Position numbers and translations under genes: made by a program | Part shown: piece by piece, positions 4,267-52,258 of the stretch | Layout of the letters: every line of letters begins with the position of its first letter | Numbering within the stretch: position 1 is the stretch's first letter | Notes under the pieces: model-generated | The model's database searches: none | What the model was told of the DNA's origin: nothing | Seen by the model: only the letters and a program-made list of their open reading frames with translations | Origin: Nemertoderma westbladi | Lineage: Eukaryota; Animalia; Xenacoelomorpha | Length of the DNA stretch: 58,000 nucleotides | Assembly (NCBI GenBank): GCA_032718475.1 | Contig: JAUCBJ010002235.1 | Span: 1 to 58,000, forward strand | Direction: 5' to 3'

Positions 4267-5736
4267 GGCTCGAAATTAATTACCCTCATGTGCGAATTAC
4301 ATCTGTCTAAGTTAAAATTATCTTACTTCACACACAATGGATCTGTATTCGTTTGCACCGTGGAGAAATCGATACCAAAGAAGATATGTGCGGATTCTGA
4401 TGTTATTGTTGGAAGAGACGTACCTAATACCTGCAATATCCTACTGTAAAGTCTGTGAATCAAATCATAAATCCGACCTTCTCACCAAAACAGTAAACTC
4501 TAAGTAAGCAAAACTATTGCAGTATTAGTCTCTTATAACCGGTGAGGCAGAAAACAGTCTACGAATGGACAAACTTCGATAAAACAAAATCCCGCGCAGC
4601 GAATCCTAAAATCAGGCTGACTCACTGATGGACTAAAGGCGCTCGTATACTTTGCCGCGGTGTGATTTATATGGGTGTGGGTGAGAGATACGCTAGCTAA
4701 ATATTTAACTAGCGAGGACAAAGCGCAGTGCGGACTAAATTATTTTATATATTTTGAGGTGTAAATAATTTCTAACGCGTGTGTGTCTTGATTCTAACGG
4801 TCAAAATCAGTTTTAGATCCTTCATATATATAATTACTGGGTCCGGTGTACATTTTACAAATATTCTAATTTTGTAACTTGTAGGTCTAATACTCACGAA
4901 TGATAAGGCTCTTTCCCCTTTTGTGTATTTCCAGGACTAAAATTCAGGCATAAGGTTAATACTACGCCCAGAATTCGGCAATTTAATTTACCAGGTCCCT
5001 AATACTAAGAAGAAATGTGTTAGTTTACTACAGTAAGCGTACAGTTACAAATATCTGGCCTGGCTTCCTATCTAGAATTTTGGTTGCCTAGGTAGGCACG
5101 GCAACTTCCTATCAGAATGTCGGCGGGGACACGGTAGATGTTAGTATCCCTAATAGCCTCAATTTATATGCGCCTAGTGGTAAACTGCCCTACCGCCTGA
5201 ACGGTACAATCCTAATTCAGGTAAAAACACAGTAACCTTCTAGCCTACAAGTTCAATGCAAATAATGGACACCGTTGTACTACAAACAAGCCACCGACGC
5301 ACCTATACCTAGCAAGAGTTAGGCGTACAGCTTGCTGCACCCTACCAATGTGTATGCCTTGTACTGGTGTGCCTGTGTCTTATCTGTGTACTAGTATCGT
5401 TCTGCCTGCTCTCCCCCCGTAGGAATATGAAGGTCTACTGCGGGTTTTCCTGAATTAAAATAGTACAGTCGCTAAATGTAATTTTTAGCGCACAGCGTGT
5501 CAATACCTCTACCTTCGATCTTAGGTCTTACACTTAGGTAGCAAGGCATCGAACGCTGTCTAACCTTTCAGGCGATGGGCGAACAACCAAGAATAGAAAT
5601 TGCGGGTTGTCTCCTTCCTACATTCCTCCGATGTTCTCGTCTATTGCTGCGGCCCGCTGTCTAGCCTGCCATCTGTCCCTCAGTTGGGTTCACCGTGGTG
5701 AAGCATAGTAAAACAGATGTAACAAATACTTCTAAC

Positions 5737-5991
5737 TTTATTACAAAATTAAACGATAACTATTATACAATAAATGTAACAAGACGTAGTAAGAAGTGAA
5801 GTGAAATTTAAGAAGATTAAGATAACTAATGAACAAAATCGCACCTTTTATAGCAAATTTGTGCTGCTAACAATCTAGATAAATCTAGATTGTTCTATGA
5901 GTTCTACTAGGTTTTTAAAGATAATCATTGGTCCAGCAAACACGTATCTTGCACGACATTGGTTACTATCAAATAACTGCAATCACATTGG
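5737..5991 (-). promoter_or_regulatory. LTR Pol II promoter and poly(A) signal: three CCAAT boxes, TATAAAA (5846-5852), AATAAA (5737-5742)
   Basis: Motifs read on the minus strand. The same CCAAT x3 plus TATAAAA layout occurs in the E2 LTR (TATA 42760-42766). Confidence 0.6.
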
Positions 5992-6057
5992 TTAATCTAC
6001 CTTGAGCAAATGCAATTAAATCGTAGCGGTCAATTCAAATAAGTTGAAATTCAGCAC

Positions 6058-6140
6058 AAAAATAATTCGAACCTGCTAGGATTTGAACTCAATACCTACT
6101 AAACGAATTTCTAACGCTTAACCGACTGAGCTACTGAACC
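6058..6140 (-). ncRNA. tRNA-like Pol III cassette in LTR U3 (not a functional tRNA)
   Basis: A box TAGCTCAGTCGG (6122-6133), B box GTTCAAATCC (6079-6088), T5 terminator (6058-6062). Acceptor and anticodon stems are degenerate. Confidence 0.65.
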
Positions 6141-6719
6141 ACTTAAACAATGTTATACAAATAGATATAGTAAATACAAATGAGGACTTAATGTAATCTT
6201 TATAGCAAATTAATTCGAACAAAATAAAATTTTGAAAATCCACGGCATTTATGAGAATATAATTCTATACCGCTCCATGAAAACAGGATATTATCGTGCA
6301 TAAAATATACGGTTTTCACCAATACTAAATCAAATTATGGAATACTTGGGACGTACTTACATATTTACAAATTAAATCTTAACAATAATACCTTTACATA
6401 ATAATTCGATACAAAATAATTACAAATTCAAACTTTACGTATTTAAGGCTTTATTAAGTAAGTACAATATAAATCTAAATTAAATTCACCAATATAAATC
6501 TATTGAATGTACAAATGTACAAATGCTACTTAAATATAAAACAAATTACATAAGTTCGGAATAATTTCAAATAAATCACAAGAAAGGCTCACAAGTCTTC
6601 CGTCTGCTCTTGCCTTCTATTTAATGCGAATACAAGTACTGCTTCTTTATAAAATATAAATTGCATAATATTCGAAACAATAAATTGCGTAAGTTTGGAA
6701 TGACTACAAATATAACACT

Positions 6720-6925: not shown

Positions 6926-7144
6926 TTAAACTTTAAATTTAATCATAAGAAAGGCTCACGAGTCTTCCGTCCACTCCTTCCTTCCCGCCTTACATAAGTT
7001 CTTACGAGTTCGGAATAATTAGTCCTTTTAAGTATAACACTTTATTCATCGTTTTGTGGATTGAGCATGGCCGCGTCCTCGAAAACTGCGTACAGGCGAC
7101 TTGGCTCGTACTACAGGACTTATGGGGCGAGTCACTGGTTTACC

Positions 7145-8388
7145 TTAGATGTTGGGAGATGGTGTGACCATTTCCTCACAAGCTCGCCTTCTAGTAATCC
7201 CAAATCCTCGTCCGACTCCTCGTGACCGACTGGTTGTATCCACGGTTGGCAAAACGTCTGGGAACGTGCGGGAAGCGGACGACGCAGACCCAAGAGAAAC
7301 TTGCGCCCCCCTTTGATCGACTGGTATGTGTCCTAATCCTCCTTGCGGTTCTCTGGGAAGTGACACCGTATCTCGAGTAACTCGAATAGTCGGTTCATAT
7401 CCCTTTCGTTCTTCAACATTTATAGTTTTCTTTAGTTGTTGGCTCACTTTCTGAACCCTTATGATCCTGTTCTGTCCGTCCTCCCGAGGGTGACGTGCAG
7501 ACGGCGCAACCGGAGTAGCTGGTATGTTGGTCGCCTCTAGGATCTCCTCTTCCTCGAATACGCTCGCTCGTATACGTTTGTGATAGAATGCGGCTCGGTA
7601 CGCCCATGCGACAGTTAACCAAGCTCCCTTATTTCGCTTTTCCGTTCGGAAACGATCAAATTCACCATATGTGATACGATTAAACATTTTGGGCAAAGTT
7701 TATACTTTCGAAAATTTCCGGTGTCATCTCCTTAGCTGAAGTTTGATCGTGTGACGTCCAATGGTAAGGTAGGCTCGCGAGTCTTCCGCCCCATTCTTCC
7801 ATCTCACCTTCCTCGAAAGCCTTATAGACTCTGTATAGGCTAAGAGCTTCTTTCTTTTCGCGGGTTGACTGAGTCACCTCGTCCAGCGTAAGTTCAAATG
7901 CATCGGGTTCAACAATTTTAGGTGGACAAACGACAATTTCTCCCGCCTTTGGTCCACACATAGCGAATGAATGATATGGATTCGATAAAGGATACCCTCC
8001 TTCCTGGTAGCGTAGTTGTTGATGGTTCGAACACCTCGCTAATATCGGTTCGGGATTTTCCTTATTCAAACGCATCGGAATCGCCTTTTTGTTGTTCGCG
8101 CATACAAGCACCACATTGATAATAAAGTTTATAAACTGAAAAGGCTTCCTTCGTTTCTCTATCATCTCCTCGAGTTCGTCTGTAAAGATGCATTCCATCG
8201 AATTCATCGCGTACCGCGGGCATAGGTTCATGTGCCTTCAGGTATTGCATGGTATGATACAAACGACTAATTTCGGTATCAGGGTCTTCACTGATATCTC
8301 CCGTATCACATAAAGCATCGTACGGATAAAGTTCATTGAAGGTTTTCGCTTTTATCCTTTGGGCTCCTCCCGATATCCCCTTTTCCAT
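7145..8388 (-). CDS. Accessory ORF of E1 downstream of pol (~413 aa after correcting two +1 frameshifts); unknown function, putative zinc-binding
   Basis: Three overlapping ORFs join by removing one base at the 8086-8090 homopolymer and one near 7695. The result has CGAC...CSNH, an internal repeat RETKEAFSVYKLY / REKKEALSLYRVY and an RG-rich tail. An upstream 3' splice site has ACTAAC (8446-8451), a pyrimidine tract and AG at 8420. Confidence 0.65.
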
Positions 8389-9044
8389 TATTGGAAGTAT
8401 GGTTACATAATCATTACTACTAGAGGGAATACAACAGAGTTTATTGTTAGTTGTGAGGAGATGTGAGAGTTTCCGTCTGCCCTTTGGGCTCGACAACGCT
8501 CTAACCTCCTACCCATAGCCTAAGATCTAGGGTTTCTTTAATGACACACTGTTTCTTATCTAAATTTTTTGCCGAAATAAAAACGATTTTGGGCTAAACT
8601 GGCTGTGAGTCTAAAATACTCACTTTTTGACGACTATTATCAGAAAATAAACAATCAAGAATTAGTAATAAATATAGGGAAGTCTATTTGTTGACATAAC
8701 TTTGAAACAAGACCGTGTAAAATTTTAATTTTAAAAAAGAAAGGCTCGCGAGTCTTCCATTCTCTTGTTTCTTTAATTTAAGTTCCACCCGACTGTACCC
8801 TGAAATCTATTCACTGGAGAAAATTTTAAAAAAATTTTCAAATCCAAATGGATTGTCTAAAATTTCGAAAATGTATCAATATTGTGAGTTTCAAGTAGAA
8901 TTCCATTTCTTATACCTACAAATCCCGCTCCTATGTGACACATAAGGGTACTACCCTCAATGTTCACATATAAAGACAATGGAATTCTACCGCTGTCTTT
9001 ACTACAGTGTACAGATACGTGGAAATCTATTTGTAAACTCCTTA

Positions 9045-12000
9045 CTATTTACTAACATTAGTTGGAGACTTGTAATCTCCAGACTTGTTTCGAGTCTCTT
9101 CAAGAAGTATGAGACGTTGAGTCGGTCTGTCTACTGTACGACCGTCAATTGTCCGTACCGTCACGGTTCTTGTCACTCCATCCATAGATGGATGTGTGTC
9201 TAAAATAACACCAGTTATCCAGAAGCGTCTTTTTAAATTCACTTCTGCTAACAGTACATGATCTCCCGGCTTTAAAGCGCGAGTATTGTTGTACCAAGTA
9301 GTTCTGGCAGAAATAGAGGGCAAATAATGATTTTGCCATATTTCCCAGAATTTGTTAGCCAGTAGTTGCGTGATTTTCCACGCTTTTCTACCATAGCTAT
9401 CGCCTTCTATTGGAATAGAAATAGGCATTAATGTAGTCGGTGCCTGCATTAGCAGGTGTGCAGGTGTTAAAGCAAACTGGGATTGTTTGTCATCGGGTAC
9501 TAATACTATTGGTCTAGTATTTAGTATTGCCTCGATTTCAACAAACAATGTTGTCAGTTGGTCGTCTGTCAAGATGTGGTTTACTGGAATTACTTTCGCC
9601 ATGGCTGTTTTTATAGATCTAATCAATCTCTCCCAGACTCCGCCTCTCCATGGACTATCTGGAGGATTAAACTTCCAAACAATTTTGTAAGGACGTAGTT
9701 CGTTTGAGATTTGATCATGATCTAATTTCTTAAAGGCTCTAGCAATTTCATTTCGAGCACCAACAAAGTTTGTACCTTGGTCTGAGTACAAGCATTTTAC
9801 TAGTCCGCGTCTAGCGATAAATCGCCGCAATGCTAGTATAAAGGCGTTGGTGGAAAGATCCATCACATGTTCAATATGAACTGCCCTACTGGACATGCAT
9901 GTGAAAATCAGTCCCCAGCGTTTTACTAGTATACGTCCACGTTTCGTATGTATGGGACCAAAGCAGTCAATTCCAGTCTCTGTGAAAGGTGGTCTGAATG
10001 CCTGTAGTCGTGCTTGTGGATGTTCACTCATTTCTTGGGTACTTATTCTAGAATGTACCTTTTTACAAATAATACACATGCGCGTCACCGAACTTAGCGC
10101 TTTACTGGGTCTAATTAATACAAATCTTGTACGTAAATAGGAAAGACAGTGGTGTCTTCCAGCGTGTTTCAGATGTAAATGTGCGTCCAGTATCATTGCA
10201 CGTTGTAATTCGTGATGTTGCGGTATTATTATTGGGTACCTAAAATCAGTATTAAAGTCGATGTTTTGAAGCCGAGATTTATAACAAATTAAGCCATTAT
10301 AAATTATCGGACTCCAACTCAATATTGGTGACGACTTGATTGGTTGACCTTGACTTATGGATGTGAATTCGCGTTCGAAATATCGCAATTGGTAATGGCG
10401 AATTAATTTAACTTCACATCTGTCAATTTCAGTCAATGTGAGTCGACGTGTAAAGTCGCGTTTGCCTTTAACGTATTGTACAAAACGTACAATCCACGCT
10501 AATTTTCGGCACGCATTTGTCCAAGAATCTGTCAGATTTACAATACGGTCGACGTAAGTATTTATGACGTCATCAGGTAAGTCAATGATGAATTTTGAAG
10601 GTTTTGTTTTACTAGATTGGCCCACGGGTCCGCCGGTAGGTATTCCCTTGTTGACTTTTGATCCGTCCGGGTCTACAAGTAATTTGTCCTTCTTTGTCTT
10701 CTTACCTTGATTGTCAGTATCTTGTGAGTCGATCCCAGGTTTCACCGTAGGTTGTAAGGTTGGTATGTCTCTTGAGCGTAAAGTAACACCTGTATTTACA
10801 TTTGCGTAGGTACTACCCACATCTGTAATACATGAGGTTTCACTGTACTTATGGTTACTCAAGGGTGTCAAGTTTGGTGGTTTGTCAATAGAAGGCCGCT
10901 CCAATAGGGAAACTGCGGCTTTACTATGTGTCACTACGTTACTAATGTCTGGTAGAACATCTTGTGAAATGTCTGGTAAAAAGTTTCGTGGAACATCCGG
11001 CGAAACGTCTAGTGACATGTCTGGCAAAATGTCTGGTTGACCGTCTGGTAACGTGTCTGGTTGACCGTCTGGCGATACGTCTGGTTGAGAAAGGCTCGCA
11101 AGTTTTCCTGTCTTAACTTTGTGAGTTATATTTTTCCATTTCGCCTTTGGTTTCTTCTTAAGTTTCGCCGTTGTCTTTTTCTTTGCTTTACCTTTCTTTG
11201 GTTTTTTAATTTCGGCGTCCTTAGGGATAGTGTTAGACTTGTTATCGTATAGTGGCGGCCAATGTTGTGTTGCTCTTTGTAAGAATTGTGGTCTGTGTTG
11301 CCAAAATTCCTTGTTTTCCGGTTTACAGAATTCCTCAGGCATCATTCCTCGCGACGCAATATCAGCTGGATTTTGTGGTCCGGGACAATGTCGCCAATCT
11401 TCCTTTATTGAACGGTCTAGAATTTCTGCACGATGGTTAGCTACAAATGTCTTAAATTCAAGTGTGTCATTGTTTATATAAAATAAAACTAACGTCGCGT
11501 CAGTCCAATAAAATATCTGTAAACTTGACTGTAGTTCAGTCTGTATAAGGTTTACAATTGTCGTTGACAGAGTTGCGGCTTGTAGCTCAGCGCGTGGTGT
11601 CGTCATGTACTTAGTAGGCATGGTCTTAGCCTTGGAAGTAATGAGCGAAACATCAAACTCATCTGAGTCTACTTGTCTGCGCAAATACGCTGTCACTCCA
11701 AAGCCGTTGTCACTGGCGTCGGAAAAACAATGTAATTCTAAGTTGTCAGGAAATGTCGTCTGTAATGGAAAATATACCCGGGGTATGGAATAATCTTCTA
11801 GTGAAGACAATTGCGCCTCCCAAGTTTTCCATAAGTCTACTTGTTCTGATGAGATCGGTTCGTCCCATGTCAGTCCATCTTTCCAGATACTGCGTATGTA
11901 TATTCTTGCTTGCAATATTATTGGGCTGATGAAACCTAATGGATTGAACAGTCTACTTAGTTTTGACAAGCAAGACCTCTTTGTCAGAGAATCTCCTTGA

Positions 12001-15000
12001 GCGTCCAGTCTTACTTTCACTCGAATAGTTGTCTGTGTTCGGGTCCCAAAATAGTCCCAACACCTTGGTCGTTGGTAGTGGTTCGAATTCCAAGTCAATG
12101 TCACCACCCCCACGTTCAGTCGTTTCGAATGAATTTACTAATTCGGTACTGTTCGAAGCAAACTTGGTAAGGTTAAAAACTCCGCCTGCTAAACAGTCCC
12201 GTAATTGATGTGCTACTGTAATGGCACGTTCTACTGTGTCGCAACTTTGTAATCCATCGTCAACGTAAAAGTCTCGTTCTACTACTTGGATTACCTCTGG
12301 GTCATACTTATGTTTCTGATCCCTAGCGGTTTGCTTTAGGGCGTACATAGTACAATTTGGGCTGTCTCTGGCCCCGAATACGCGAACTTGCATTTGGTAA
12401 GTCGCCGGTGGTTGACTTAAGTCTCCAACCAGGTACCAGAGGAACCTCAAACTGTCTCTGTCTCGCTCTAACGCTCGCACCTGGTGAAACATGGCTTCGA
12501 CGTCGCAAGTAAATGCTACTTGGCGTTGACGGAAGCGCATAATCACCCCCATGAGATAATTATTCATGTTTGGTCCATCCATCAGCTCACTATTGAGAGA
12601 CATTCCCTCAAACAGAGCCGCGCAGTCATTTACTACACGTACCTTGTCTGGTTTGTCGGGGTGTCTCACGTAGTGATGTGGCAAATAGTATGTCTGGTCT
12701 GTCACACGCTTTTGTCCTTCTGGGCTCCTCCCCGAGGCGCACCCACGAGGCGGACGTGTTTCCACCACCCTGGGGGCCGGTGACAAACCAAACCAGGCCG
12801 CAGGGTGGCCCGATGCTTCCCGGGTTCTGTTTTAGGTCCCCCGATCACACCAGCACAGCTCGTCGAACGTGTAGCCAGATGGGCGGCTACTGTCAACTTA
12901 CTGTGGCCTGACTGTACATTGAGCCAACTCAAAGTATAACAAAGAGTCAACCGGCAGGTGGACCAGTCGATAGCGATCGAGCACCAAGGTCGCCCTTGGG
13001 CCTAACCGACGGTCTTGTCCCAAGCGGGCTTGCGCTACCCAACATGGAATTTTGACTCGTTTTCACCTGCCTCGCCGGCAGTATTGAGGGGAAATAAGTT
13101 CTGCAAACAATACTGACTAGCTCGAAAGCTAGAAACAAGTAACCACTTACCAGTCACTGTACACGTGTACTCAACAGATGTTCACAATATCAAGTACACT
13201 ACGGTAAACACAAAATCTGACACATACCATGCACACACAGAGGACATAATCGGGTAAGACAAAATCGGTGTCAAAATCGGGAAAGACAAAATCGGAGGGG
13301 ACAAAATTGTATCGACCGGAATTGGCAAAGAGTCGAGAGTACTTTATTTTACCGACAGGGTAAAATAACTTTGTGTGCACAAAGTATGCTGGGGCGCAGT
13401 AAAGTATGGTCCTACTAATACCAGCGGCGTCTGGACCAACTGGCAAGGGTTCCCATACCCACTCGCAGTGGCCACACATACAATCACGTGTACTCACGTA
13501 CCCACAGCAACAGAAAACTCAAGACCCGAACAAATCCCAAAGACCAATCAGCTGACATGGAGACAATAACATATAGTATCAAAAAAACGGAACAGCTGAT
13601 GGCCAAAAGAACCCATCCAAGCCCCAAGCAAACTGCCACTGATCGCCCACATACAAACATAGTTCACGCCACATGAGCCACAAATCACACCATGCCACCA
13701 CCCCTACTGTGTACAGGACTGGCAGTACGGCAACAGGCCGACTAGACGGTACCACGGCACCATGGCAATTCATGGTTCGTTAGACACGAGAGCCTTCAGT
13801 GACTCCCTAGCACTATATTACCAGATTTAACGTGCCCCCAGACCCTCACGAGTCCGCCGCCGCCTGTTAGAGACACCCCTATAGAGACCTCACCTCTTTA
13901 GGTATCTCTGGGTTTGTCATTCTGATAGCGTACCCTTTTGTCAAATACGTCTCCATCTGTGTATTATACTGCAGATGGGCTTTCTCGTCCTTTAATAAAC
14001 GTTGTCGTATTGAGTTTAAACGTCTTAAAGCTAGTGGATAGTTGTTTATAAGTTTAGGACGTTGGTTACGCCATAGCATCCCTACCTCATAATGTCCGTC
14101 TTTCGTCTGGCGGATAGTATCTTCCATGATCTTTAAGGATTGTTTTTCTTGTTCCGACATGCATGGTTCGTAACTACCAGGCTCGGCTGTATCTTGTTCC
14201 AACCACTTGATAGTTTTTTCTGTTAAGTCTTTGTCCAGCGCAGCTTGTTCCACTTGACAATTCCTTAATTCGTCGGCATCGACAGGTGTTGATAAGGTTA
14301 TTGGTTGAGGTAGACTCGCAAGCCTTCCAGCGTTATCATCGGTCGTTGATGGAACCTCTGCCTGACGCGTCTCCTTCTTAATCTCTGGGCTTACCCTTTT
14401 GTAAAGTGGTTTCTGCTCCCTTTGACTTATTGTACTTGCTACACATGTCGTACTTGTCACTTTGCCGTGTATTGTCGAATTTCGGCGTGTAGTATAGTCT
14501 TTGTCGTGTGAAAAGGAATGAGTCGAAGTTGTAGTTAATAAACTACATGTACTTTGCACATCGTCTTCCTCATCACTTATATCTAGTGTGCGCACAGGCG
14601 CTCGAGTATACCAACCTATCGGAGTTCGACAGGCGTAAGCGTTTCCTGCTACGACTACCGATGGTCTGGTTTCCCACACTTGATGTAAGTTGAATTGATC
14701 TGTCCCGATCAGCATTGCTACTGATCTATAGTTAACAGGACATTCAGGTACACCAAGGTGTCTGAAATACTTACGGTCCTCTAAGGATTGTTCTGGCACT
14801 GGACCCAGTAGATTACTAAAGTCCTTAGTGGCCGCAAAAGTTAAATCCTTAAAGGGTAACAAAGACCTCTCCCTTTCGCTATGTTGCGATTTTGGAAGAA
14901 GAGTATCTAAGTTCAACTTAACTCGTGTCACTGGTATTCCACGTTGTCCATGCATACTACTTACAGTATATCTGACGTGCTTACCTTGTCGAAGATCCGT

Positions 15001-25323: not shown

Positions 25324-25479
25324 ATAGTTTCAATTTTACATTATTTATTGATTTCAAATTTTTAATTTGCACCTCCTTTACATGGGGCCCCAAAAAGTCG
25401 GGGGCCCCTAGGCTATAGCCTAGCTAGACTAGGCCATAATCCAGCCCTGGGCTGCTGGCAACATCTTTAGTGATATTAA

Positions 25480-26380
25480 TCCTGATGATAACTTGAATTG
25501 CAATTTGATTCTAGGGGATTACTTTAATGAAACAACATTTGATAACCAATTCTACGGAAATAACAGCAGATCGAATTTGTCATTAATGCGTTTAAATTGC
25601 AGGAGCTTAAACGCAAATATATGTGCAATAACAAATTTTTTGTAATCTATGAATGCCAAATTCGACATTCTGTCTTTTTCGGAAACGTTTTTAACTAAAG
25701 ATAGTGTATTAAATGAAGTTGCCATTCGTATATTTAAGGAACCTTATTGTGATTTTCGAAAATGGTGTACAAGAGACTAGCCAGAGGAGGCACGGCTATT
25801 TATGTGCGCTCCCACCTTAGAAACATCAATACGATCTGACCTCCGTTTCAACGGCCCTAAAAATTGCTGGATAGAAGTGGTGAGGCCTCACACTAATAAG
25901 CCATTATTAATTGGCCGTATTTATCGCTCATTCGATCTCATTACTCCTCATGAGAACACATTTACTTGTGAGAAAGGTGGAAGCTTGATAGACTTTCTAA
26001 TAGCCTCAGAAAAAATATCGAGTAATTGTGTTGAAATTTTCATTGATAAAAACTTTGAACTATTTGCTGGAACTCCAAATAGAGGACATTACCCCGTATA
26101 TTCAGTGTATAAAGACTTAAAGTCACGGGAGAATGACAATGATAAAAAAGTTATATACTGTATGAATTAATTGTCTCTCTGTCCGAGTTCGCTCGACTTA
26201 CGAGTATATGAATTAAAAGATACAGATTGTGCTTTCTGGTCACATTCATTAGAAAATACATTGAAAGAAACAAATGATACATGGACACTCCTTGAGGACC
26301 CTGCAGAACTATGGGAGTTTTTAAACGATAAAACAAAGGAAGGACTGTCAGCCACAGGTATGAAAAAATAGGAAAAAATC
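25480..26380 (+). pseudogene. Old LINE endonuclease fragment(s), mirrored at ~31400-32250
   Basis: DINPDDN, LNCRSL, SET, RGGTAIY, TFT..GGSLIDF and GHYPV motifs with stops. Confidence 0.7.
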
Positions 26381-31200: not shown

Positions 31201-31367
31201 GGGCCCCTTTTTTCTAACGTAAATCTTTAATCTTTTAATAACCGATCCTTATTTATTGCTAACTTTATTTGACACTGTGCTTTCTTTACTCGATATATAA
31301 ATTTACCGGTACTTTTATGGGCTGCTATATTAAGCCTGGAATAAAGATAATAATAATAATAATAATA
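28202..31367 (+). mobile_element. Degenerate APE-type non-LTR retrotransposon (clade not assigned); its 3' part is mirrored at ~26507-28201
   Basis: EN motifs GDFNA, SWLDH and DHMPI; VPGWN; RT motifs GPDGI, NYRGIAL, QFGF, LLYEDD and YKYLG; AATAAA plus (TAA)n tail. The EN region is interrupted by a ~430-bp poly-C-containing insert (~28474-28900). Confidence 0.9.
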
Positions 31368-32688
31368 GATTTATACAGTAGCTCCCAACAAAAACTCCCA
31401 TAGTTCCGCAAGGTCCTCAAGGAGTGTCCATGTATCATTTGTTTCTTTCAATATATTTTCTAATGAATGTGACCAGAAAGCCCAATCTGTATCTTTTAAT
31501 TCATATACTCGTAAGTCGAGCGAACTCGGACAGAGAGACAATTAATTCATACAGTATATAACTTTTATATCATTGTCATTCTCCCGTCACTTTAAGTCTT
31601 TATACACTGAATATACGGGGTAATGTCTTCTATTTGGAGTTCCAGCAAATAGTTCAAAGTTTTTATCAATGGAAATGTCAACACAATTACTCGATATTTT
31701 TTCTGAGGCTATTAGAAAGTCTATCAAGCTTCCACCTTTCTCACAAGTAAATGTGTTCTCATGAGGAGTAATGAGATCGAATGAGCGATAAATACAGCCA
31801 ATTAATAATGGCTTATTAGTGTGACCTCACCACTTCTATCCAGCAATTTTTAGGGCCGTTGAAACGGAGGTCAGATCGTATTGATGTTTCTAAGTGGGAG
31901 CGCACATAAATAGCCGTGCCTCCTCTGGCTAGTCTCTTTTACACCATTTTCGAAAATCACAATAAAGTTCCTTAAATACACGAATTGCAACTTCATTTAA
32001 TACACTATCTTTAGTTAAAAACGTTTCCGAAAAAGACAGAATGTCGAATTTGGCATTCATAGATTACAAAAAATTTGTTATTGCACATATATTTGCGATT
32101 AAGCTCCTGCAATTTAAACGCATTAATGACAAATTCGATCTGCTGTTATTTCCGTAGAATTGGTTATCAAATGTTGTTTCATTAAAGTAATCCCCTAGAA
32201 TCAAATTGCAATTCAAGTTATCATCAGAATTAATATCACTAAAGATGTTGCCAGCAGCCCAGGGCTGGATTATGGCCTAGTGTAGCTAGGCTATAGCCTA
32301 GGGGCCCCCGACTTTTTGGGGCCCCAAAGCAAATTTAAAATTAGAAATCAATAAATAATGTAAAATTGAAACTATGGAAACAATTCTTTGACTGGAAAAC
32401 CATGAATTTTACCGGTTTAGGCCTTGTTCACACTCCTGAGTCAAAGTCAAAGTCAAAAAAAAAATAAATAAATATAGCTAGCAAGCAATAATAAATAATA
32501 ATACATTATATATGCCTAATATAATACATAGGGGCATTCTATGAAAAATTAAATTTCATGTGATGTGTTTTACATTTTGTCTTTTGACTTCGTCTTTGAC
32601 TCGGTAATGTGAAATGCGGCCTTACATGTAATTTGACAGAGGGGTCATCAATAATATTACTAAATTCACTGCCATTGAACTTCCGTTA

Positions 32689-33235: not shown

Positions 33236-33632
33236 GGCCTATATTTCGATGCTAGTTTTAGCAGGTCTGGATAACTTTGCTCCCTTCCATATTTTGCCAG
33301 TGTGCCTTTAGGTTGATATTTATTATGATATCGAAAACATTTATTACATTTCTCAAATTTTAAGGCTATTATTACAGTTTTTCTGCAAACCCGCGGATGT
33401 GCATAAAATTCGGGGACTTATTGTATTTGGTTCAATGCATTCACCATAGCAGCAGTACGCCTTTTTGAGTGCTGGAGCATATTAGTGCATATTAGTATAA
33501 TATATCGTACCCTGAATATATATATAATTATTATATAGTCTAGTGTAGAACGAAAATAATAGACAGACCAAAATCAAGCAATAAAAATAATAATAATTAT
33601 TATTATTATTATTATATACAGTATATATTATA

Positions 33633-34545
33633 CACCATGACCCGTAATATAGTGTCATTTTCTGATGACACGGACCCCCCCTCCCCCCCCCCAGATTTTT
33701 CTATAAATCTGTATCAAATTGTTTGAAATTTGAAACACAATTAGTTCAACTCACCGTGGTTGTTACCATGAAGCCGGAATTTTCGATTTCGCCTTTAAAT
33801 TTTATTTATAAGCGTTTTAAAAAAGTGTCTTTTGCGAAATCGCACCCTCTGTATCATTGCCATTCTTCACTTTAGTCGTAATTGTTCACATCAATAGAAA
33901 GCTTGCGTTGCAAGGATTCCAAATATGTAACAATGTCTGAATTTCGTTGAGAAACAGCTGAGAAATAGGCATTCAAAGATTGCAAGAATTATTGTTCGCT
34001 GAAGGCCATTTATTCTATTTAATAAATACATAATATTCTTGAACGTGTTATTTATTTTATGAGTTGGTAGGCAACAGCGGAATGCCTATACAATATCTAT
34101 ATTGCCTAGCTAATCATACATAAACAAATTGTTCCAGAATATTGTGTATTTATTAAATAGAATAAATGGCCTGCAGTGAACAATAATTCTTGCAATCTTT
34201 GAACGCCTATTTCTCAGCTGTTTCTCAACGAAATTCAGACATTGTTACATATTTGGAATCCTTGCAATGCAAGCTTTCTATTGATGTGAAAAAAATTACG
34301 ACTAATCTGAAGAATGGCAATGATACAGAGGGTGCGATTTCGCAAAAGACAATTTTTTAAAACGCTTATAAATAAAATTTACAGGCGAAATCGAAAATTC
34401 CGGCTTCATGGTAACAACCTCGGTGAGTTGAACTAGTTGTGTTTCAAATTTCAAACAATATGATAAAGATTTGTAGACAAATTTGGGGGGGGGGGGGGGG
34501 GGGTCCGTGTCATCCGAAAATGACACTATATTACGGGTCATGGTG
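33633..34545. mobile_element. Foldback MITE with ~410-bp inverted arms and TA TSD (Tc1/mariner-like)
   Basis: TA|CACCATGACCCGTAATATAGTG ... CACTATATTACGGGTCATGGTG|TA; arms ~33633-34045 and ~34134-34545. Confidence 0.9.
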
Positions 34546-35147
34546 TATATAATAAGAATAAAATAATAGGAAGGCATATTTTATACAACCATGTTCAGCA
34601 TGATCCGGTCTCTTAAATATAATTTTGAGTTGAACGAATTATGTTTTTGGCAGACCAATATCAAGCAAGTAAAATAATTATTTGGAAACAGAGAAACAAC
34701 ATGTTCCTATCTGTTCAACCGTAAGTAGTCATCGTTTTATTTAAGCAGGGACACAAAGCGCAACCCTGTTTAAATACTGTAAGTAAAATTATCACATTGG
34801 TTACATTTTTGCATGTGTTTCGCCGGGACTTTTTTTTTTTGCTTTGCTTCGCCGGGATTTGGATCATCAGCTACACTAACCCGTGCAGGACACATGTTAA
34901 TCAAACTAACTACACCAAAAACCAGCTAAAAACACACACGTGTAATTTAAGTTAAGTCAGTGCTCACATTTTGAACAATATCTCGAGAAGTAATAACTCT
35001 AGCGTTGTGGGGCGAGACACGTATGGCGAGCCATCAGCGAACTGATATAATTATACTATGGCCGTTTTTCAAAAGTCTGTGTGTGTGTGTGTGACGTGTG
35101 TGTGTGTGTAGGTGAACTGGTTCAAACAGGGGACAATTGCATGAATA

Positions 35148-36082
35148 CACTCACTCCTTTAAACTCCCACAACCCTGCCCCACCCACTCCTTTAAACTCA
35201 GACGACCCTGCCCCACTCACTCCTTTAAACTCCGAAAACCCTGCCCCACCCACTCCTTACAACTCCGACAACCCTCCCCCACCCACTCCTTTAAACTCCG
35301 ACAACCCTGCCTCACTCACTCCTTTAAACTCAGACGACCCTGCCCCACTCACTCCTTTAAACTCCTATGACTCTGCCCCACCCACTCCTTCAACATCCGA
35401 CAACCCTGCCCCACTCACTCCTTTAAACTCCAATGACCCTGCCCCACCCACTCCTTCGACATCCGACAACCCTGTCCCACCCACTCCTTTGACCTCCGAC
35501 AACCCTGCCCCACTCACTCCTTTAAACTCCAATGACCCTGCCCCACCCACTCCTTCGACATCCGACAACCCTGTCCCACCCACTCCTTTGACCTCCGACA
35601 ACCCTGCCCCACTCACTCCTTTAAACTCCAATGACCATGCCCCACCCACTCCTTCAACATCCGACAACCCTGCCCCAATCACTTCTTAAAACTCCGACAA
35701 CCCTGCCCCACCCACTCCTTTAAACTCCGACAACCCTGCCTCATTCACTCCTTTAAATTCAGACGACCCTGCCCCACTCACTCCTTCAACATCCGACAAC
35801 CCTGCCCCAATCACTCCTTTAAACTCCAATGACCCTGCCCCACCCACTCCTTCAACATCCGACAACCCTGCCCCAATCACTTCTTAAAACTCCGACAACC
35901 CTGCCCCACCCACTCCTTTAACCTCCGACAACCCTGCCCCACCCACTCCTTCAACCTCGGACAACCCTGCCCCACTCACTCCTTTAAACTCCAATGACCC
36001 TGCCCCACCCACTCCTTCGACATCCGACAACACTGTCCCACTCACTACTTAAAACTCCGACAACCCTGCCCCACTCACTCCT
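35148..36082. repeat. 33-bp minisatellite (~28 units, ACTCCTTTAAACTCCGACAACCCTGCCCCACCC)
   Basis: Clear 33-bp periodicity; G-rich on the minus strand. Confidence 0.95.
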
Positions 36083-39000
36083 TTATAAGTTAAACTGGTC
36101 TGTCCCAATTAACATCGCAATGGAACGATAATTAACAGGACATTCCGGTATTCCAAGGTGTCGGAAATACTTACGATCTTCCGGTGATTGCTCTGGCACA
36201 GGGCCGAGCAAGTTACTAAAGTCCTTCGTAGCTGCAAAGGTCAAATTTCTTACCGGAAGTAATGAGCGCTCCTCCTTGCTGTGTTCCGCTTTGGAAAGAA
36301 GAGTGTCTAAGGTTAGTTTTACTCTTGTCACAGGGATCGCTCTCTTACCATGCATGCTGCTTACAGTATACTGAGCAGTCTTACCTTGACTCATGTCCGT
36401 AACCACGTCGGCTACTTGTTCGTCGACATAACTATGCGATGACGCAGAGTCTAAGATAGCGTATATACGCTTGCTCCCTCGGGTTCCGGTAATCTTTATA
36501 GGGATCACACTAAACCCTTTCAATTGGTTCTGTGTGAGGAGCGTTATCAATGGTTGTTCCTCACCTGCATGCACGTAGAAAGTGTCGTCTTCCTCCTCGT
36601 CCTCATCCGATGATCCTGACTGATCCATACAGTCTGCATAAAAGGTACGGATCTCGCGCGGCGCACGCTCCTTATAAAGCGCGTCGCATCTAGCCGCTTT
36701 ATCTGGATACTCTCGTCGAAAGCGTCTGGTCGGAGTATGACTGGTTGTGTGGAGCAACGCGTCATGGTTACGTCCACACTGAGGACATGTATCGTCGCTC
36801 GGGCAATCCTTCCGGACGTGTCCTGGCTTCATACATCTCCAGCAGGAATCTAACGATCGAATTTGGAGTCTCCTTTCTTCAATCCCTAACTCCTTAAAAG
36901 CGCGACATCCACGAAGTTTATGTCCGCTATGGTTTCTGCCGTTCCGCTCGCAGTATGAGCATCCCGCAAAGTCCGCCGGCAACTGTTGTCGTGGCTGCGT
37001 GGTGCCGATAGGCGTCAGAACTTTAGAAGTCTCAGTAGGGGTGGCGTAGGTAACGGCTTTCGCGTTCGTCGGAAATGGTTTGGTCCGAGTCGGCGCAGAA
37101 ATAGCTATCCCTTCCGCCGCGATATGGTGATCGGTATAGTTCGATCGAGTCTCGATCACGGCCTCCCGTGAAATCAGTTGGTAGACGTCGGTGAGTTTTA
37201 AAAGCCCGCCGGCCTCTTCACGCTGGTACTCGATGCGTCGCCATTCTCGTCGGAGTCGATGATGATGTCGACCGATTATCCTGATGAGAACCGTCGGTGC
37301 GTTAGTGTATTCGAGTTGTCCAATGGACCGTAAAGTCCCTATAGCATTTTTGATTTCGTCCGCGAGTCGTAGAAGGTCGATCGGTTTCGAAATGCTGCCT
37401 CCTCTACAGAGGTCTTCGATAATGGATTTAGCCATGGCGACGTTACCTCCGTAAATCGAATATAAACGGTCGTACACCAACTCAAAGGCATCGGGAACAC
37501 CAATGAAGGTTTCCGCTAATCGTTTCGGCTCACCAGACAGGACTTGGAGCAAGTAATTAAACTTATCCGGCGAGGTGAAAGCACACTTAGCGATCTGGGA
37601 CTCTACGTAGTCTACCAGTGTGCGCCAGTGTTTCGCGTTGCCAGAGAACTTCGGTGGTTGCTGTGCCGGTAATCCGTGTCTAGCCGCGAATTTCGCAATC
37701 TCGCTAACCAAATCCAACTGTCCGCGTCCCTGTTCGGCGGCGTCGTCCAGTCGCTCCCTTCCGCGCGTTGGTGGTCGGTAGGAATTATTAACGGGATCTT
37801 CTTCTCGATGGGTCGGAGTCTGTCTAGTCTCCTGTTCTCTCCTTGGTGGTCGATGTTGTCTAGGTTGTTCCAACTCCATGCTGGTTCGTGATCGATCTGA
37901 CGGTTGCACTTCGAGTCGTTCTTCGAGTTGAGCTATTCGGTCTGTCATCTCGGTGAACTGTTTGGCGCTGATCGTTTCCGCTGGTTTCAACGTGGGTTTC
38001 TGTTGGGGTGTTTCTCGTGGAGGATTATAGATATAGGTGTTCATCGATCGTTCCTCTCGTTTGTAATCATCCGCTGCTCCAGTATGGAATATTTCCCGTT
38101 CCGTCGACTCCGAGTCGCTAGATGAATCGCTGTCGTCTGGATAAGGTGGTTGGCGGGTTCGCGTACGGCGTATTATTCTTGGTCTCGTCCATTGTGGTCT
38201 GGAATCTACGGCTCTCCGTTGTTCGGTAGGCTCGCAAGCCTTCCACGAAGTCGTAGGTCTCGTTATATGTTGTCCGATCCAGTGGGTACTACCCACATCC
38301 ATCCTCCTCCGTTGTTCGGTAGTTATGTTACTTGCTAAAATTGGCGATGAAGTCGCCCTAGGTTGCGGTATTTCCGTCACAACAAACCTGTTGCCTTGCG
38401 TCGAACGCACAGGCGTTATTTCCTTAGGTTTCGTAACAAAGACCGGTTTTATCGAAGTCGCGGGTTTGAGCATAGGAATAACTTGGGGAAAACGTCTACA
38501 GTAATCCTCGACGAACTCCTCTCCTCGATCTATAGCTCCCACACTTCCTTCCTCGATTCGCTTTTGAATTCCGCGATATCGAGCTTCCATACGATCCAGG
38601 GCAGACAAGTCGTGTCCAGCTTGCGATCTGATAGATCTATCTCTCGCGTCGAGTTCAAGGTCCGCTTGCGCGTTCGCTGCCTCGCGCGATCTACGATTCA
38701 ACTCGAACTGTAATTGCATCTCCCTTTCGCGTCGATCCGCTGCTTATTGTTGTGCCGCTAACTCCACTTCCTGTATAGCTAAACGAGTGGCTATTTGTCG
38801 TGCCTCCAACTTGGCGCGAGCGTCGGATGCTGCTTTCTTCCGTGCTAATTCTTCGGCTGCCGCCGATGCGGCTGCTTCTTGCGCTAAGTCTTCTTCTAGT
38901 CTCCTCATCTCTGAGGATTCTAATTCGGCTTGCGCCTTGAGTTGCGCAATTCTCGTCTCATCCTCTCTATGTTGTTTCTCTCCCTCGATGGCGATCTGTG

Positions 39001-39889
39001 CCATCCTCTGTTGCGCTTCTTCCTCGACGACTTGTTGTCGGCGTGCAACCTCCTGTTGTTGTCGAGTAATTACAGACGCTGTCCTACTAACGTCGCCAAC
39101 GTCGCTCCGCATGCTAACGAACGATCTATCCAGTGGTGGATGCTGGTAGGCTCGCGAGCCTTCCGTAGTGAGAACTTCCGTCGTCCCTCGCGGTTCGACT
39201 TCCGGTTCTTCGATCGGTACGCCGCATCTATGAAGAAAATTGGTGAGTGTCTCTAACCTCCCGTCCAGGCAGTAGAGTTCTTCTTCCTCTTCGGGTTGTA
39301 ACAACGCGTCCGAAACTGACTCACCTAGCAGTTGGTCGAACTGCTCCTGTTGAGCCAATCTTATCACCGACTTAAACTGGATAAGGCTTTCTCTCGCACT
39401 TACCAACTTGTCTATTATCTTTACCTGAGTAAAGTTATCGCCACGCAACTCTGCAAGTTCGTGTAAACCTTTAAGTTTATCTACGGAGGCATGTACCCTA
39501 CTTTCTATCCTTACCTGTAAGGTGTAGAACTCGTATCTCGACATCGGGGCGGTTAACGCGCGTAAAACGCGAAAACCTTCTCCGAGGTTCCGAGTAATCT
39601 GGGCCATGTGTCCTCCTATACTCCTAATAACGTTCTCCTGGCTTCCAGTCGAACTTACCATGTCCGGTTCCCGCGATCTAGTCTGCGGGACGGTAAGGAA
39701 ATCTTCGATTCTGCCGTCGCCACGCGTTGCGGCTTCCGGTATTTCCGTTCGGGGTACCGGCGACGCAAGTGGTGTGACATCGGTGGAATCTCGGGTTCTC
39801 CTTCTCGTTTCGTCTACTGTCGATCTGTCCGGGTCGCACGAGTCATAGTCGGTAGGTGGGTATCTCATCGAATGGGGTGTGTCACTCAT
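36083..39889 (-). pseudogene. E2 gag-protease with one in-frame nonsense codon (TAA 38744-38746), truncated at the minisatellite
   Basis: The 381-aa and 878-aa ORFs are in the same frame, separated by one TAA in a CAA run. Homology ends at DQFNL. Confidence 0.92.
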
Positions 39890-40798
39890 GTCTTATTATA
39901 TACGTCAAGTACGGGTAATAAAATGTCAAAGTTCTGAAGTGTTGAAGTGTCAAACTTACCTTGGTATATATAATAGATATATATATACCCTAACCGGTAC
40001 AAATAAATCAACAAAGTCAGAATGTCGAAATGTCAAAATGGCGAAATGTCGAAATGTCAAACTTACCTTGATATATATATATATCATATATATACCCTAA
40101 CCGGTACAAATAAAACTAACAAAGTATATAATAAAATAAGTAATAATCTAGCCTACCGGCTAAATTTGTACGAATAAATGAGATAACGGTATAAGTTACC
40201 AAAATGTAGATCAACAAGTACAAATAATAGGCAAAACAGCAACGTCTAACGGGAAAATAAGTACCAACAACACTACTAATAGACAGTGAAACCCACAAAT
40301 TTTGAGTACTACTGTGCTTTCTTAAGTTTGAACGACACGAGTCGTAAAACTTACGTTCCTTTGATCTTCCAGTCGTGCAAATTCCCAAATACAAACCGGA
40401 CGTGGGTCTTTCCGTTTTTCGGCGGCGCGGACGAATTTGTTGTCTCCCAAACATTGCGAAAAGCGGTCTAATCCTCGAAGCGGTCCAGAAATGAGTCCTT
40501 GAGTCCTGAAAGGTCGAAGGTGAGAGTTTTACTTCTACGCTACGAAAAATCTTCCTAGGTACTGATACAACTTGGTCTTTAAACCCTATGTACCTTTTCA
40601 AGTACCGAAAAGTAACACCGCACACACACGGCGTAAAACAAAATGCTACAAACTAACTATTAGCTAGTCAAATATTAAATACAAAAGTACTAGCTACCCT
40701 AAAAGCCTACTGAAGCAGGGGACGTTCTACAAATTACTAAATTTACTAACCTTAAATTTTAAATATCTCCTACTTTCAATAGCTAACAGATCTAAACA

Positions 40799-41104
40799 AT
40801 ACTATACACTACGGTAGAAATATTATACACTAATTTATATAAATATTTTTCACTTACAATAGCTAACTATATTTATATATATATCTCACCCTAAAATGCG
40901 CACGCACCTTCGGTCGAGATATTTAATAAAATATTTCTCACTGTAAGGTGAGAATACTATACACTACGGTAGAAATACTATACACTAATTTATATAAAAT
41001 ATTTCTTACTTACAATAGCTAACTATATTTATATATATATATCACCCTAAAATGCGCACGCACCTTCGGTCGAGATATTTAATAAAATATTTCTCACTGT
41101 AAGG
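40799..41104. repeat. 156-bp tandem duplication spanning the E2 LTR end and PBS position
   Basis: ATATTTCTCACTGTAAGG occurs at 40931 and 41087. Confidence 0.9.
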
Positions 41105-43107
41105 TCCAGTAGTATACCGCTTACCAGATCCTAGTAACGATGTATCTTACCGTAAGATCTAGTAATGTATACGGGCTCGTACAGTATCTGACAACAAATC
41201 CCAGTCCAGGATATCTAAACAAACAGATACAATACACAAACTACTACTGGCGAGGAACAGAGCCTAGTGTCTATTCTACGTACGTGAGCGGGTCTAATGC
41301 CTATGAACTAGACAGAAGGAAACCTGTCCTCTAACCGGTGAGGCAGATGTACAGTTACAGTAACAGACCAAACTCACGGGAAAACAATCCCCGCGCAGCG
41401 AATCCTAACTATCGCTGACAGTCCTAAATACCGTAACTTGCCGCCGTGTGATTTATATGGTTTATATACGAGCTAGTTGGTTAACAGACCTAGCGTAACA
41501 ACACTGATTCAGTCCTAAATCAGTCGAAAAGGGGTCGTGCCTAATGTAAAAATACTGCTGAGCAGAAAACAACAGTTTAATAACGAAAATGAAATACTCC
41601 TTATTGCCGTAGTAACTAAATATCAGATCCTAATTTACAAATACAGATAAATTCTACCTAAAGTAATATATAGTACGCTATAACTAGTAGAATTCTAAGG
41701 GTAAATATGTTTTAGGGCGTGTGTGTGTGGGTGTGTTACAATAAAACAATTTTGGTGTATATCTTTTCACTAGGTTTTAGTGATTTTCTGACCGAAATGA
41801 TACCGTGCGCTAGCTACTAAAATGAACTAGTCGCGTTTTGTAGAACTTTATACTCACAAATGACGTCAAAGCTCTCTCCTTCCTATCCACAACTCAATGG
41901 GCAACCACAGTGTTAGTAACTACACCCGTGATCGGCACTAATACCAGATTCTGGTTGTAAGATAAGAAATAGGGGTTAATCGCTACCGTACGTTAGCTGA
42001 TCTGGTATACAAATTTAATTCTAGAACTTTGTTGCCGCGGTAGTTAGCAGCAAATACCTATCAGTACGTGGCAAGGCGCGGTAGGATATTAATAAAACCT
42101 CCCTAGGCCAAGCGGTGTGCCGGTAGCAGAAATCCTCCTTGCCTGATCAAATAACTAACTTCAGACAGGGGGGGGGGGGGGTGCTAATGTATGTTCTACA
42201 AAGCGAACCGGTACCAAACAGTCAGTACTACGAATCACTAAATTATGGAACATATGCTGTCCGTACCTATGTACTCGCGTACTGACGAATGGCAATAGCT
42301 CGCACCTATGAGAAATACAGGTTAACCCAGGGGTTCGCAGGACTGACAAAATAACTAAGCAGGACTGCCTAAATATAATTATTTGATCCTAAATTTTGCG
42401 GCGTCCAGGACGGCATCACGCTTACCCTGATCTATAGGTCTTACGGCGGGCAAGGGCGTCGAACAAAGTCTTACCTTCCTCATAAAGCGGGCGCTGCATG
42501 GCAAGTGGAGTATTTCGAAGGGCGAAGGGGGTGCGCAGTCAAATCCAATGTGGGCGCTAGCGTGTTGTGGACATCTTTCCCCTGCGTTGCTGACGGCCTA
42601 ACGGTCTAGGCTGCCATCTTCCCGATGTTTGGCTGTCCCAAGGTTGGACCAAAAGAAAACATGTTCAGGAGTTTGCAGTGTATTTACAGTTTAGCAAAAG
42701 GTTAAGCAAGTAGAAGTACAATGTGTGTGATAAGTGATAACCGAAGGCAAACCAGCCCTTTTTATACTAAATCTGGGACATAGAATTCACTAGAACCTTC
42801 GAGAGTATTCGATGGCCTCACATTGGAGCAATAAGATATTCCATGCCCTATGATTGGCCCAACTCATCGTTCGATACATTGTACGCACCTCATTGGCTTA
42901 CCAATCTGTACCAAATGAAAATAAATGGCCCCAAAATACAAATTTCCCGACCGGGATTCGAACTCGTAACCTATCTGTAATGTAACCAACTAGGGGTTTT
43001 ATGTATACAAATATGAATAGGCATATTACATTACTGTAACTTACTCAAAATGCGTCGGATTTTCGAAAGTTTTTACGTTAAAGTTAAACTACAAATGCTA
43101 TCTTATA
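41098..43107 (-). repeat. 5' LTR of E2 (~2.0 kb; boundaries inferred by analogy with E1)
   Basis: Plus-strand ends TGTAAG...CTTATA form an imperfect inverted repeat. Colinear conserved blocks, TATA, CCAAT and B box match the E1 LTR. Confidence 0.7.

Positions 43108-50399: not shown

Positions 50400-52258
<1,859 letters not shown>

Follow-up and report, generated by a model that had tools for sequence, protein, structure and literature searches.

Among retroelements with long terminal repeats (LTRs), complex retroviruses carry the Rev/RRE and Rex/RexRE systems, and the env-bearing Cer BEL elements of Caenorhabditis elegans have extra open reading frames (ORFs), with an element-encoded primer proposed for Cer7; the tRNA-like primer segment of the Cer elements lies in the internal 3′ region and not in the LTR. 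When the 3′ end of a mature transfer RNA (tRNA) serves as the primer, its binding site must contain TGG. The Belpaoviridae are delimited by Pol in the International Committee on Taxonomy of Viruses (ICTV) profile, which describes elements of 4.2–10 kb with LTRs of 0.2–1.2 kb and an optional env, lists an 18-nucleotide (nt) tRNA-Arg/tRNA-Gly site as a descriptive trait, and treats priming by tRNA as the rule in BEL/Pao elements, whose replication it calls poorly understood (PMC8742986). Self-priming is described for Ty3/gypsy and Ty1/copia elements in the accessible parts of the sources, and in Tf1 an 11-nt site directly follows the LTR (available part of PMC7175516). Here we analyze a 58,000-nt stretch of Nemertoderma westbladi DNA (assembly GCA_032718475.1, contig JAUCBJ010002235.1, positions 1–58,000; the window), in which two BEL/Pao elements, E1 and E2, lie on the minus strand. 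We consider it rather probable that they represent a multi-copy, deeply diverged BEL/Pao family that is likely self-primed from an 11-mer within its LTR and that likely expresses two orphan non-envelope proteins from a spliced message.

Primer sites and their LTR partners

The original prediction of two diverged family members was confirmed by Pfam domains (Peptidase_A17, DUF5641, DUF1759). Gag-protease is 73% identical between E1 and E2, and synonymous sites are saturated, since only 39 of 131 four-fold sites are identical. Contigs of runs X1–X3, which represent two samples, number 15,745, 11,552 and 7,781 on E1 and cover all 30 E1 bins, the accessory region included, so the E1 family is multi-copy; run X6 gave no contigs on E1. 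The LTRs and the sites relevant to priming are:

4407–24444, minus strand: E1, full-length BEL/Pao insertion, ∼16 kb without two later inserts, with a 5-bp target duplication
4407–6269, minus strand: E1 3′ LTR, 1,863 bp, TA start and CA end, by self-comparison
19710–21435, minus strand: E1 5′ LTR, main part, by self-comparison
41098–43107, minus strand: E2 5′ LTR, 2,010 bp, ends (43107/41098) placed by homology
19699–19709, minus strand: primer-binding site of E1, 11 nt without TGG, second copy at 19671
about 19661–19634, minus strand: 12-bp hairpin with a UACG loop, after the E1 primer site
40931–41097, minus strand: E2 primer-binding site at 41097–41087, repeated at 40941 through a 156-bp tandem duplication
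5419–5429, minus strand: E1 11-mer, candidate self-primer, exact complement of the post-LTR site
42308–42318, minus strand: E2 candidate self-primer, pairing 11/11 (two G·U) with the E2 post-LTR site

As predicted, neither element has a TGG tRNA site at the LTR edge. E1 has a TGG at +10 and E2 has none within 100 nt; the E1 TGG was ruled out as a tRNA site, being missing in E2 and deleted in a variant from run X2 (joint 19673/19733). Comparison of both primer sites with the available part of the tRNA-site table of PMC13524379, made without a positive control, gave no matches.

Each primer site is instead complementary to an 11-mer inside the element's own LTR, ∼1 kb upstream. In E1 all 11 pairs are Watson-Crick, a result matched by 1 of 3,000 dinucleotide shuffles, and the copy of the 11-mer in the 5′ LTR (20732–20722) pairs with one G·U; in E2 the 11/11 pairing with its two G·U was matched by 73 of 3,000 shuffles. 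Exact complements in the LTR were found for 15 of the 13,430 internal E1 11-mers, two of which are the primer site and its repeat. The E1 and E2 LTR 11-mers share columns 902–913 of an LTR alignment that was made independently of the pairing. The primer sites differ between the elements at 6 of 11 letters, and the LTR partners change to match. The duplex extends past an internal loop onto the LTR end, reaching −29.3 kcal/mol in E1, where it is the best LTR window by 10.8, and −18.2 and −20.1 kcal/mol for the two site copies of E2, but only −9.3 to −11.5 kcal/mol when the families are crossed.

The covarying 11-mer supports the tRNA-independent priming that had been predicted. As in elements with a Tf1-type mechanism, the site is complementary to the element's own LTR, and at the level of sequence the site and the LTR 11-mer are a Tf1-type self-priming signature; RNA of the family itself is the likely primer of its reverse transcription. 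In this mechanism the LTR 11-mer would anneal to the site directly after the LTR, the next purine-rich bases would pair with the LTR end, and the RNase H of the reverse transcriptase (RT) would cut behind the 11-mer to leave a free 3′ end, by analogy with Tf1. The self-complementary primer site of the original prediction survives in part. A local hairpin covers the post-LTR site in both E1 and E2, but the LTR 11-mer is the better partner; as a snap-back primer the hairpin was ranked lower, because it is bulged in both elements and absent from the run X2 variant.

The unit of LTR end and primer site is prone to duplication (19634–19750 and 40798–41105). CAGTAGGA is present four times around the E1 LTR end, and the run X2 variant has one such unit fewer.

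Several results weigh against self-priming. The E1 duplex is part of the lowest-energy fold (cost 0) when the RNA starts ≤50 nt from the 11-mer, but it costs 6–9 kcal/mol when the start lies 100–200 nt away, and the E2 duplex costs 6.0–14.6 kcal/mol at every start tried. When RNA was folded from the TATA-predicted start, local hairpins beat the duplex, which had to be forced at a cost of 15.6 (E1) and 11.8 (E2) kcal/mol, and there is no TATA box before the 11-mer. For the first site copy of E2 the homologous window ranked second among the LTR windows. Another long-range helix, downstream of the 11-mer, was dropped, because controls that crossed the families were equally strong and the helix did not rank first in E2. 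The covariation compares two family members, one of which has its ends placed by homology.

The position of the transcript start bears on the same question, and the relevant features are:

5737–5991, minus strand: E1 promoter-like set, with CCAAT at 5991, 5962 and 5931, TATA at 5852 and AATAAA at 5742; putative function
CCAAT at 42896, 42857 and 42826, TATA at 42766 and AATACA at 42684, minus strand: E2 promoter-like set, in the same order as in E1
5517–5531, minus strand: conserved GTAAGA block that resembles a donor, situated after TATA and before the 11-mer (E2 42444), candidate donor
19253–19432, minus strand: predicted leader exon, with acceptor 19432 (E2 40506) and donor 19252 (E2 40354), both conserved

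The TATA-predicted start lies ∼390 nt upstream of the 11-mer. Given the positions of TATA and of the poly(A)-type hexamer in both LTRs, an R of 100 nt and a U5 of 1.3 kb, the giant U5 of the original prediction, would follow, and the leader from this start would span 2.2 kb and contain 14 ATGs. A cut at the 11-mer, ∼390 nt inside this RNA, would yield strong-stop DNA without overlap with the RNA 3′ end. Because of this distance we tentatively favor two starts. The TATA promoter would then serve the messages, spliced from the 5531 donor to the 19432 acceptor, which would take out both primer and primer site and avoid the 2.2-kb leader, whereas the genome RNA would start at or near the 11-mer and have its end past the 3′ LTR copy of the 11-mer. 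The chief rival of this model, a single start with priming in trans by one RNA on its co-packaged partner, is possible, although we lean away from it.

It is improbable that the primer is a fragment of a host RNA, such as a tRNA half or an anticodon loop, with the LTR 11-mer only masking or regulating the site. Priming by half-tRNAs and anticodon loops is known in other LTR elements (available parts of PMC6317226 and PMC10886601), and the duplex is not the favored fold of a long RNA; a fixed host primer would, however, keep the site constant, and the site has changed between E1 and E2 with its LTR partner tracking it. If self-priming from the LTR 11-mer is true, the covarying pair brings this mode of priming into a third LTR superfamily, with a primer far inside a 1.9-kb LTR, and it might let the element escape silencing by tRNA fragments.

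A probable spliced message, accessory ORFs and the dispersed 17-mer

The features of the probable spliced message and of the dispersed motif are:

18903–18912, minus strand: GGTAAGTTT, candidate donor just upstream of gag, from sequence
8420–8455, minus strand: acceptor region of the accessory exon, with a branch-point-like CTAAC, a pyrimidine tract and AG
7680–8388, minus strand: ORF-X1, ∼235 codons, disrupted near 8.09 kb, with CxxC and CxxH flanking the break
7046–7687, minus strand: ORF-X2, starting within the end of ORF-X1, 180 codons to a private stop and then 32 open codons
6582–18774, minus strand: 17-mer GGAAGRCTYGYGAGCCT, 10 sites in E1 at 18774, 17016, 16932, 16848, 14328, 11108, 8758, 7787, 6968 and 6601

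In one contig of run X4 (depth 211), 19256 and 8420 are joined across two intervening letters. Taken on the minus strand, the joint places the exon end 19253 next to 8419 with one substitution, and removes a GT..AG intron of 10,833 nt whose GT is at 19252 and whose AG is at 8420. Although the 15,164-nt stretch considered contains 873 GT and 1,066 AG, consensus donors number only 10 and strong acceptors only 5, and both joint sites are among them. The leader donor 19252 is seen at this joint, and the acceptor 19432 is known from sequence conservation. A gag-adjacent donor, GGTAAGTTT, had been predicted; the sequence was found at 18911 in E1 and at 40066/39959 in E2, but the observed joint uses donor 19252 and not the donor next to gag. 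Likewise, of the predicted extra non-env ORF behind a strong acceptor, the acceptor at 8420 stands, whereas the single ORF gives way to two overlapping ORFs.

Two orphan proteins, neither of them an envelope, are likely encoded by a spliced message of the family. The accessory ORFs are covered by contigs in all four runs aligned, and the breaks in them look private to the E1 copy. A run X4 contig aligns at 7683–8345, needs a single gap to cross the ORF-X1 break and stops where ORF-X1 does, a contig of run X5 spans the overlap of ORF-X1 and ORF-X2 gap-free, and contigs from all four runs differ from E1 at the first ORF-X2 stop. Length variants cluster at 7045–7070, just past the last ORF-X2 stop. 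The C-terminal stretch of ORF-X2 is basic and Arg/Ser/Pro-rich, and the CxxC and CxxH of ORF-X1 might, at a guess, be zinc ligands. As an env-type membrane glycoprotein the 3′ ORFs gave no Pfam match and have ≤11 hydrophobic residues in any 19; E1 is not an env-bearing BEL/Pao element. If true, the spliced message for two orphan non-env proteins amounts to retrovirus-like complexity without an envelope.

On this side, too, there are contrary points. The predicted spliced message is supported by one contig among the joints listed, with 27 letters on its short side, from a run without a recorded type (listed as ‘DNA?’). Contig depth along the LTR differs between run X4 and runs X1–X3, which would fit RNA in X4, but such depth is no guide to the relative abundance of gene parts and is given no weight here. 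The joint could also stem from a DNA form or from a spliced copy that was retroposed, and the latter would still imply splicing. Homologues were absent among 120 candidates (longer proteins only) for the 3′ piece of ORF-X1, and among 22 candidates for ORF-X1 read with X at its break. ORF-X2 had no match among 1.84 billion representatives, a search of which ORF-X1 was not part, and neither ORF matched Pfam or PDB. Single-sequence AlphaFold models of the accessory proteins reached predicted local distance difference test (pLDDT) scores of 35.7 and 47.5, too low for use of the folds.

The repeated 17-mer of the original prediction was also found. There are 12 sites in the window with ≤1 mismatch to GGAAGRCTYGYGAGCCT, 10 in E1 and 2 in E2, against 0.01 expected; all are on the sense strand, all lie within E1 or E2 and none is in an LTR, and five extra rows reflect palindromic overlap. 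As the pattern was drawn from the data, a de novo count was made on E1 without tandem arrays and without the pol insert, and gave a top count of 7 compared with 3–4 in 12 shuffles. The copies are found in each of the three reading phases and also outside coding sequence, and each element has one site without a counterpart in the other, so the 17-mer acts as a nucleic acid and turns over. The motif is nearly palindromic around a CpG core, and an 84-bp tandem array has multiplied it. When the three array copies are treated as a single one, its core shows nine C-to-T and no G-to-A changes across 10 sites, which suits RNA pairing with G·U. Seven of the 10 E1 copies are intronic and three lie in the 3′ exon, and 8 of the 12 copies fold weakly (0 to −2 kcal/mol). 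The 17-mer likely serves as a strand-specific target of a protein that the element itself encodes. In our judgement a Gag packaging site is a reasonable possibility; an RNA site of the accessory protein is more doubtful, and both a DNA site of that protein and some other role are unlikely.

Consensus donors are in surplus in the 5′ part of gag. E1 has 6 compared with 0.77 expected and E2 has 3 compared with 0.20, and in neither case did any of 2,000 codon shuffles have as many; they span 17149–18631 (E1) and 39324–39658 (E2), and there was no such surplus in the other three coding stretches checked. They are possibly U1 loading sites.

One reading would join these parts into a Rev/RRE-like system, in which the product of the spliced accessory message recognizes the 17-mer on RNA and promotes the export or the stability of the unspliced genome RNA. 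The lineage would then use no host tRNA, cut its primer from deep in a giant LTR, splice the primer system out of its messages and use an orphan protein on a 17-nt RNA element as the switch. This is compatible with the explanation preferred here but is a stronger claim, and we regard it as unlikely. The joint to a small basic ORF pair, the strictly sense 17-mer in all frames and the surplus gag donors, as if RNA were retained until a factor releases it, are in its favor. Several points tell against it, above all in a strict form: the spliced exon contains three of the 10 E1 copies, so that the 17-mer does not mark unspliced RNA and is not a response element confined to the intron, most copies fold weakly, and no RNA-binding domain was detected in the accessory ORFs. 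If true, the integrated reading would mean that Rev/RRE-type control arose independently here, in combination with self-priming.

Equally unlikely, in our estimate, is that the 17-mer is a DNA site at which the accessory protein relieves silencing or activates the element, in the manner of VANC. The near-palindrome with its CpG core, the spread through the element body, the array, the gains at different places in E1 and E2 and the possible zinc ligands of ORF-X1 would fit, and VANC proteins target motifs within the transposons that encode them (available part of PMC5735166); but all 12 sites share one orientation and vary by C-to-T on the sense strand only, which fits RNA G·U pairing better than a symmetric DNA site, and the LTR promoter has no 17-mer. 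It is very unlikely that the 3′ ORFs are captured or decayed passengers and the run X4 joint a DNA deletion: both ORFs are broken in E1 and lack homologues, and the joint is one contig of a run guessed to be DNA, but its two sides match a consensus donor and a consensus acceptor, other copies lack the breaks, and contig similarity and length variation change at the ORF-X1 and ORF-X2 stops, respectively.

Element anatomy, LTR sequence and neighboring DNA

The remaining features of the two elements are:

24302–24444, minus strand: E1 5′ LTR, first 143 nt, severed by the insert, identical to the 3′ LTR
21436–24301, no strand assigned: composite insert, 2,866 bp, in the A box of the cassette, with a 7-nt TAGCTCA duplicated
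13879–18862, minus strand: E1 gag-protease by Pfam, disrupted near 16.0 kb
9045–12723, minus strand: E1 RT (YVDD), RNase H and integrase, disrupted near 12.0 kb
6270–6278, minus strand: E1 polypurine tract, short and imperfect
36083–39889, minus strand: E2 gag-protease, with 17-mers at 39164 and 38244; the element ends at a 33-bp tandem array
4536–4674, minus strand: LTR block of highest conservation, 73% identical to E2 41460–41332 across 145 columns, E 1e-9
6060–6142, minus strand: tRNA-like cassette, with A box 6133, B box 6088 and a T-run; E2 counterpart 42992/42963

A 5-bp target duplication at 24449–24445 and 4406–4402 sets the extent of E1 from 24444 to 4407 and thereby fixes its ends, its 1,863-bp LTR and its TA..CA termini. 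Self-comparison matched 4404–6133 to 19707–21435, with a further 143-bp match at 24302–24444, and 1,707 of 1,727 columns are identical between the 3′ LTR and the main part of the 5′ LTR (19 differences and one gap). The predicted LTR length of ∼1.9–2.0 kb and TA..CA ends therefore hold for E1, whose 5′ LTR, with its 5′ end at 24444, is split by the 2,866-bp insert; for E2 the 2,010 bp and the ends come by homology. E1 encodes an integrase of HHCC type and is broken in gag near 16.0 kb, by a ∼1.2-kb insert in pol, near 12.0 kb and in the accessory region. The pol insert, at ∼12730–13893, is missing from other copies (joint 12706/13904, runs X1–X3) and itself has many contigs over it. A long low-complexity spacer at 10550–11250, between RNase H and integrase, has 12/24-bp repeats and one 17-mer. 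E2 consists of 5′ LTR, leader and gag-protease only; it stops at 36083 and has no 3′ half in the window.

The predicted conserved non-coding blocks were confirmed. LTR and leader blocks are 70–83% identical between E1 and E2 while synonymous sites are saturated, which argues that these blocks are under selection. The predicted tRNA-like cassette keeps its A and B boxes but is not a tRNA gene: ARAGORN found no tRNA genes, Rfam gave no tRNA match, and there is no cloverleaf. It is an A/B-box remnant. No ribozyme or other Rfam family was found in either LTR.

The target site described for tRNA-targeting Dada transposons in the available part of PMC3706591 is that of the insert at 21436–24301. No transposase ORF was found for the insert in the list of ORFs, and its target site alone suggests that it is Dada-like; this also suggests that the E1 cassette was taken for a tRNA gene by the targeting element. 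The insert contains an inner inverted repeat (23212–23703) and a 20-bp array.

Beside E1, a plus-strand ORF of Ty3/gypsy-type RNase H-integrase (2154–4034) ends ∼370 bp before the E1 3′ end. A near-perfect inverted repeat of ∼7 kb (25314–32385), with arms 97–100% complementary around a 482-codon ORF (no Pfam match) and an RT fragment, is either a foldback structure or an assembly artefact. A MITE-like (miniature inverted-repeat transposable element) inverted repeat and satellite arrays of 33, 13 and 29 bp occupy 33624–34554, 35148–36085 and 49326–51021. Between tandem arrays at 51005–52258 (minus strand) lies an intronless 417-codon ORF with RRM domains, possibly a retrocopy.

Comparison with known systems

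E1 has Gag, protease, RT, RNase H and integrase in the Ty3/gypsy order with BEL/Pao-type domains, together with two LTRs, a short target duplication and a short, imperfect polypurine tract. It shares with the Belpaoviridae the Gag-PR-RT-RH-IN order, the PF05380 Pao-type RNase H region, DUF1759, DUF5641, an RT with YVDD, the 5-bp target duplication and metazoan-type relatives; it differs in its size of ∼16 kb, its 1.86-kb LTR, its two non-env ORFs and the lack of a tRNA site, the 18-nt tRNA-Arg/tRNA-Gly site being absent from both E1 and E2. Among the 120 matches listed, the nearest RNase H-integrase proteins are 32–41% identical, and the named ones come from fish, amphioxus, echinoderms, molluscs, coral and fluke. 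In an integrase-region tree of 55 of the 119 usable sequences, built with no labelled clade references, E1 is the longest tip (1.14). Neither viral contigs nor metagenome contigs contained relatives with flanking DNA, and the traits are compared between E1 and E2. Relatives may have been missed, because elements of the size of E1 exceed the limits of one survey (LTR ≤1,500 bp, spacing ≤11 kb; available part of PMC6238403).

The traits had been put forward as unexpected for BEL/Pao. Long LTRs, TA..CA ends and tRNA-like inserts each have precedents, whereas self-priming is undescribed for BEL/Pao in the titles and abstracts searched. The same titles and abstracts gave no spliced accessory or non-env gene and no such LTRs in BEL/Pao, most subscription papers and Repbase lying outside the search. 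BEL/Pao LTRs reach 2,427 bp in a genome survey (available part of PMC3118150, supplement 9), the extra genes of BEL/Pao elements in the accessible part of PMC13524379 are env-like, with no others there, and conserved terminal repeats are the rule according to the part of PMC3601003 at hand. The tomato element TARE1 also has 5′-TA..CA-3′ ends (cited in the available part of bioRxiv 10.1101/137141); it is a plant element, and the non-canonical ends in that survey are 89% Copia and 11% Gypsy. Like the E1 cassette, the Helenus and Cassandra TRIMs (terminal-repeat retrotransposons in miniature) carry a polymerase III promoter sequence derived from a small RNA within the LTR, but they are short and non-autonomous, whereas the E1 cassette lies upstream of a polymerase II promoter in an element of autonomous type (available part of PMC10886601). 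VANC and VANDAL provide an element-borne protein with short dispersed target motifs, often tandem repeats; they belong to a plant DNA transposon with demonstrated DNA targets, while the candidate likeness of E1 comes from its letters (available part of PMC5735166).

Tf1/Tf2, Tj1, Tf1/sushi and Tcn1 (Ty3/gypsy) and TAR/Houba/Osr-1 (Ty1/copia), as far as the accessible parts of the sources go, share with E1 and E2 an 11-nt LTR-adjacent site that is complementary to the own LTR, and the lack of a tRNA. Tf1 belongs to another superfamily, and the first 11 nt of its RNA serve as the primer, whereas the E1 primer would lie ∼390 nt behind the TATA-predicted start and ∼1 kb from its site. E1 is also no Tf1/sushi element, because its Pol is of BEL/Pao type and not that of a Ty3/gypsy chromovirus. 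Complex retroviruses resemble E1 in the leader exon, which in E1 is probably joined to small 3′ ORFs, the basic Arg-rich stretch and the surplus gag donors; E1 has no env, its motif is dispersed and also present in the spliced exon, and no sequence similarity was found. E1 is a genuine BEL/Pao element by its Pol, probably Tf1-like in its priming and probably also, in part, like a complex retrovirus in its expression.

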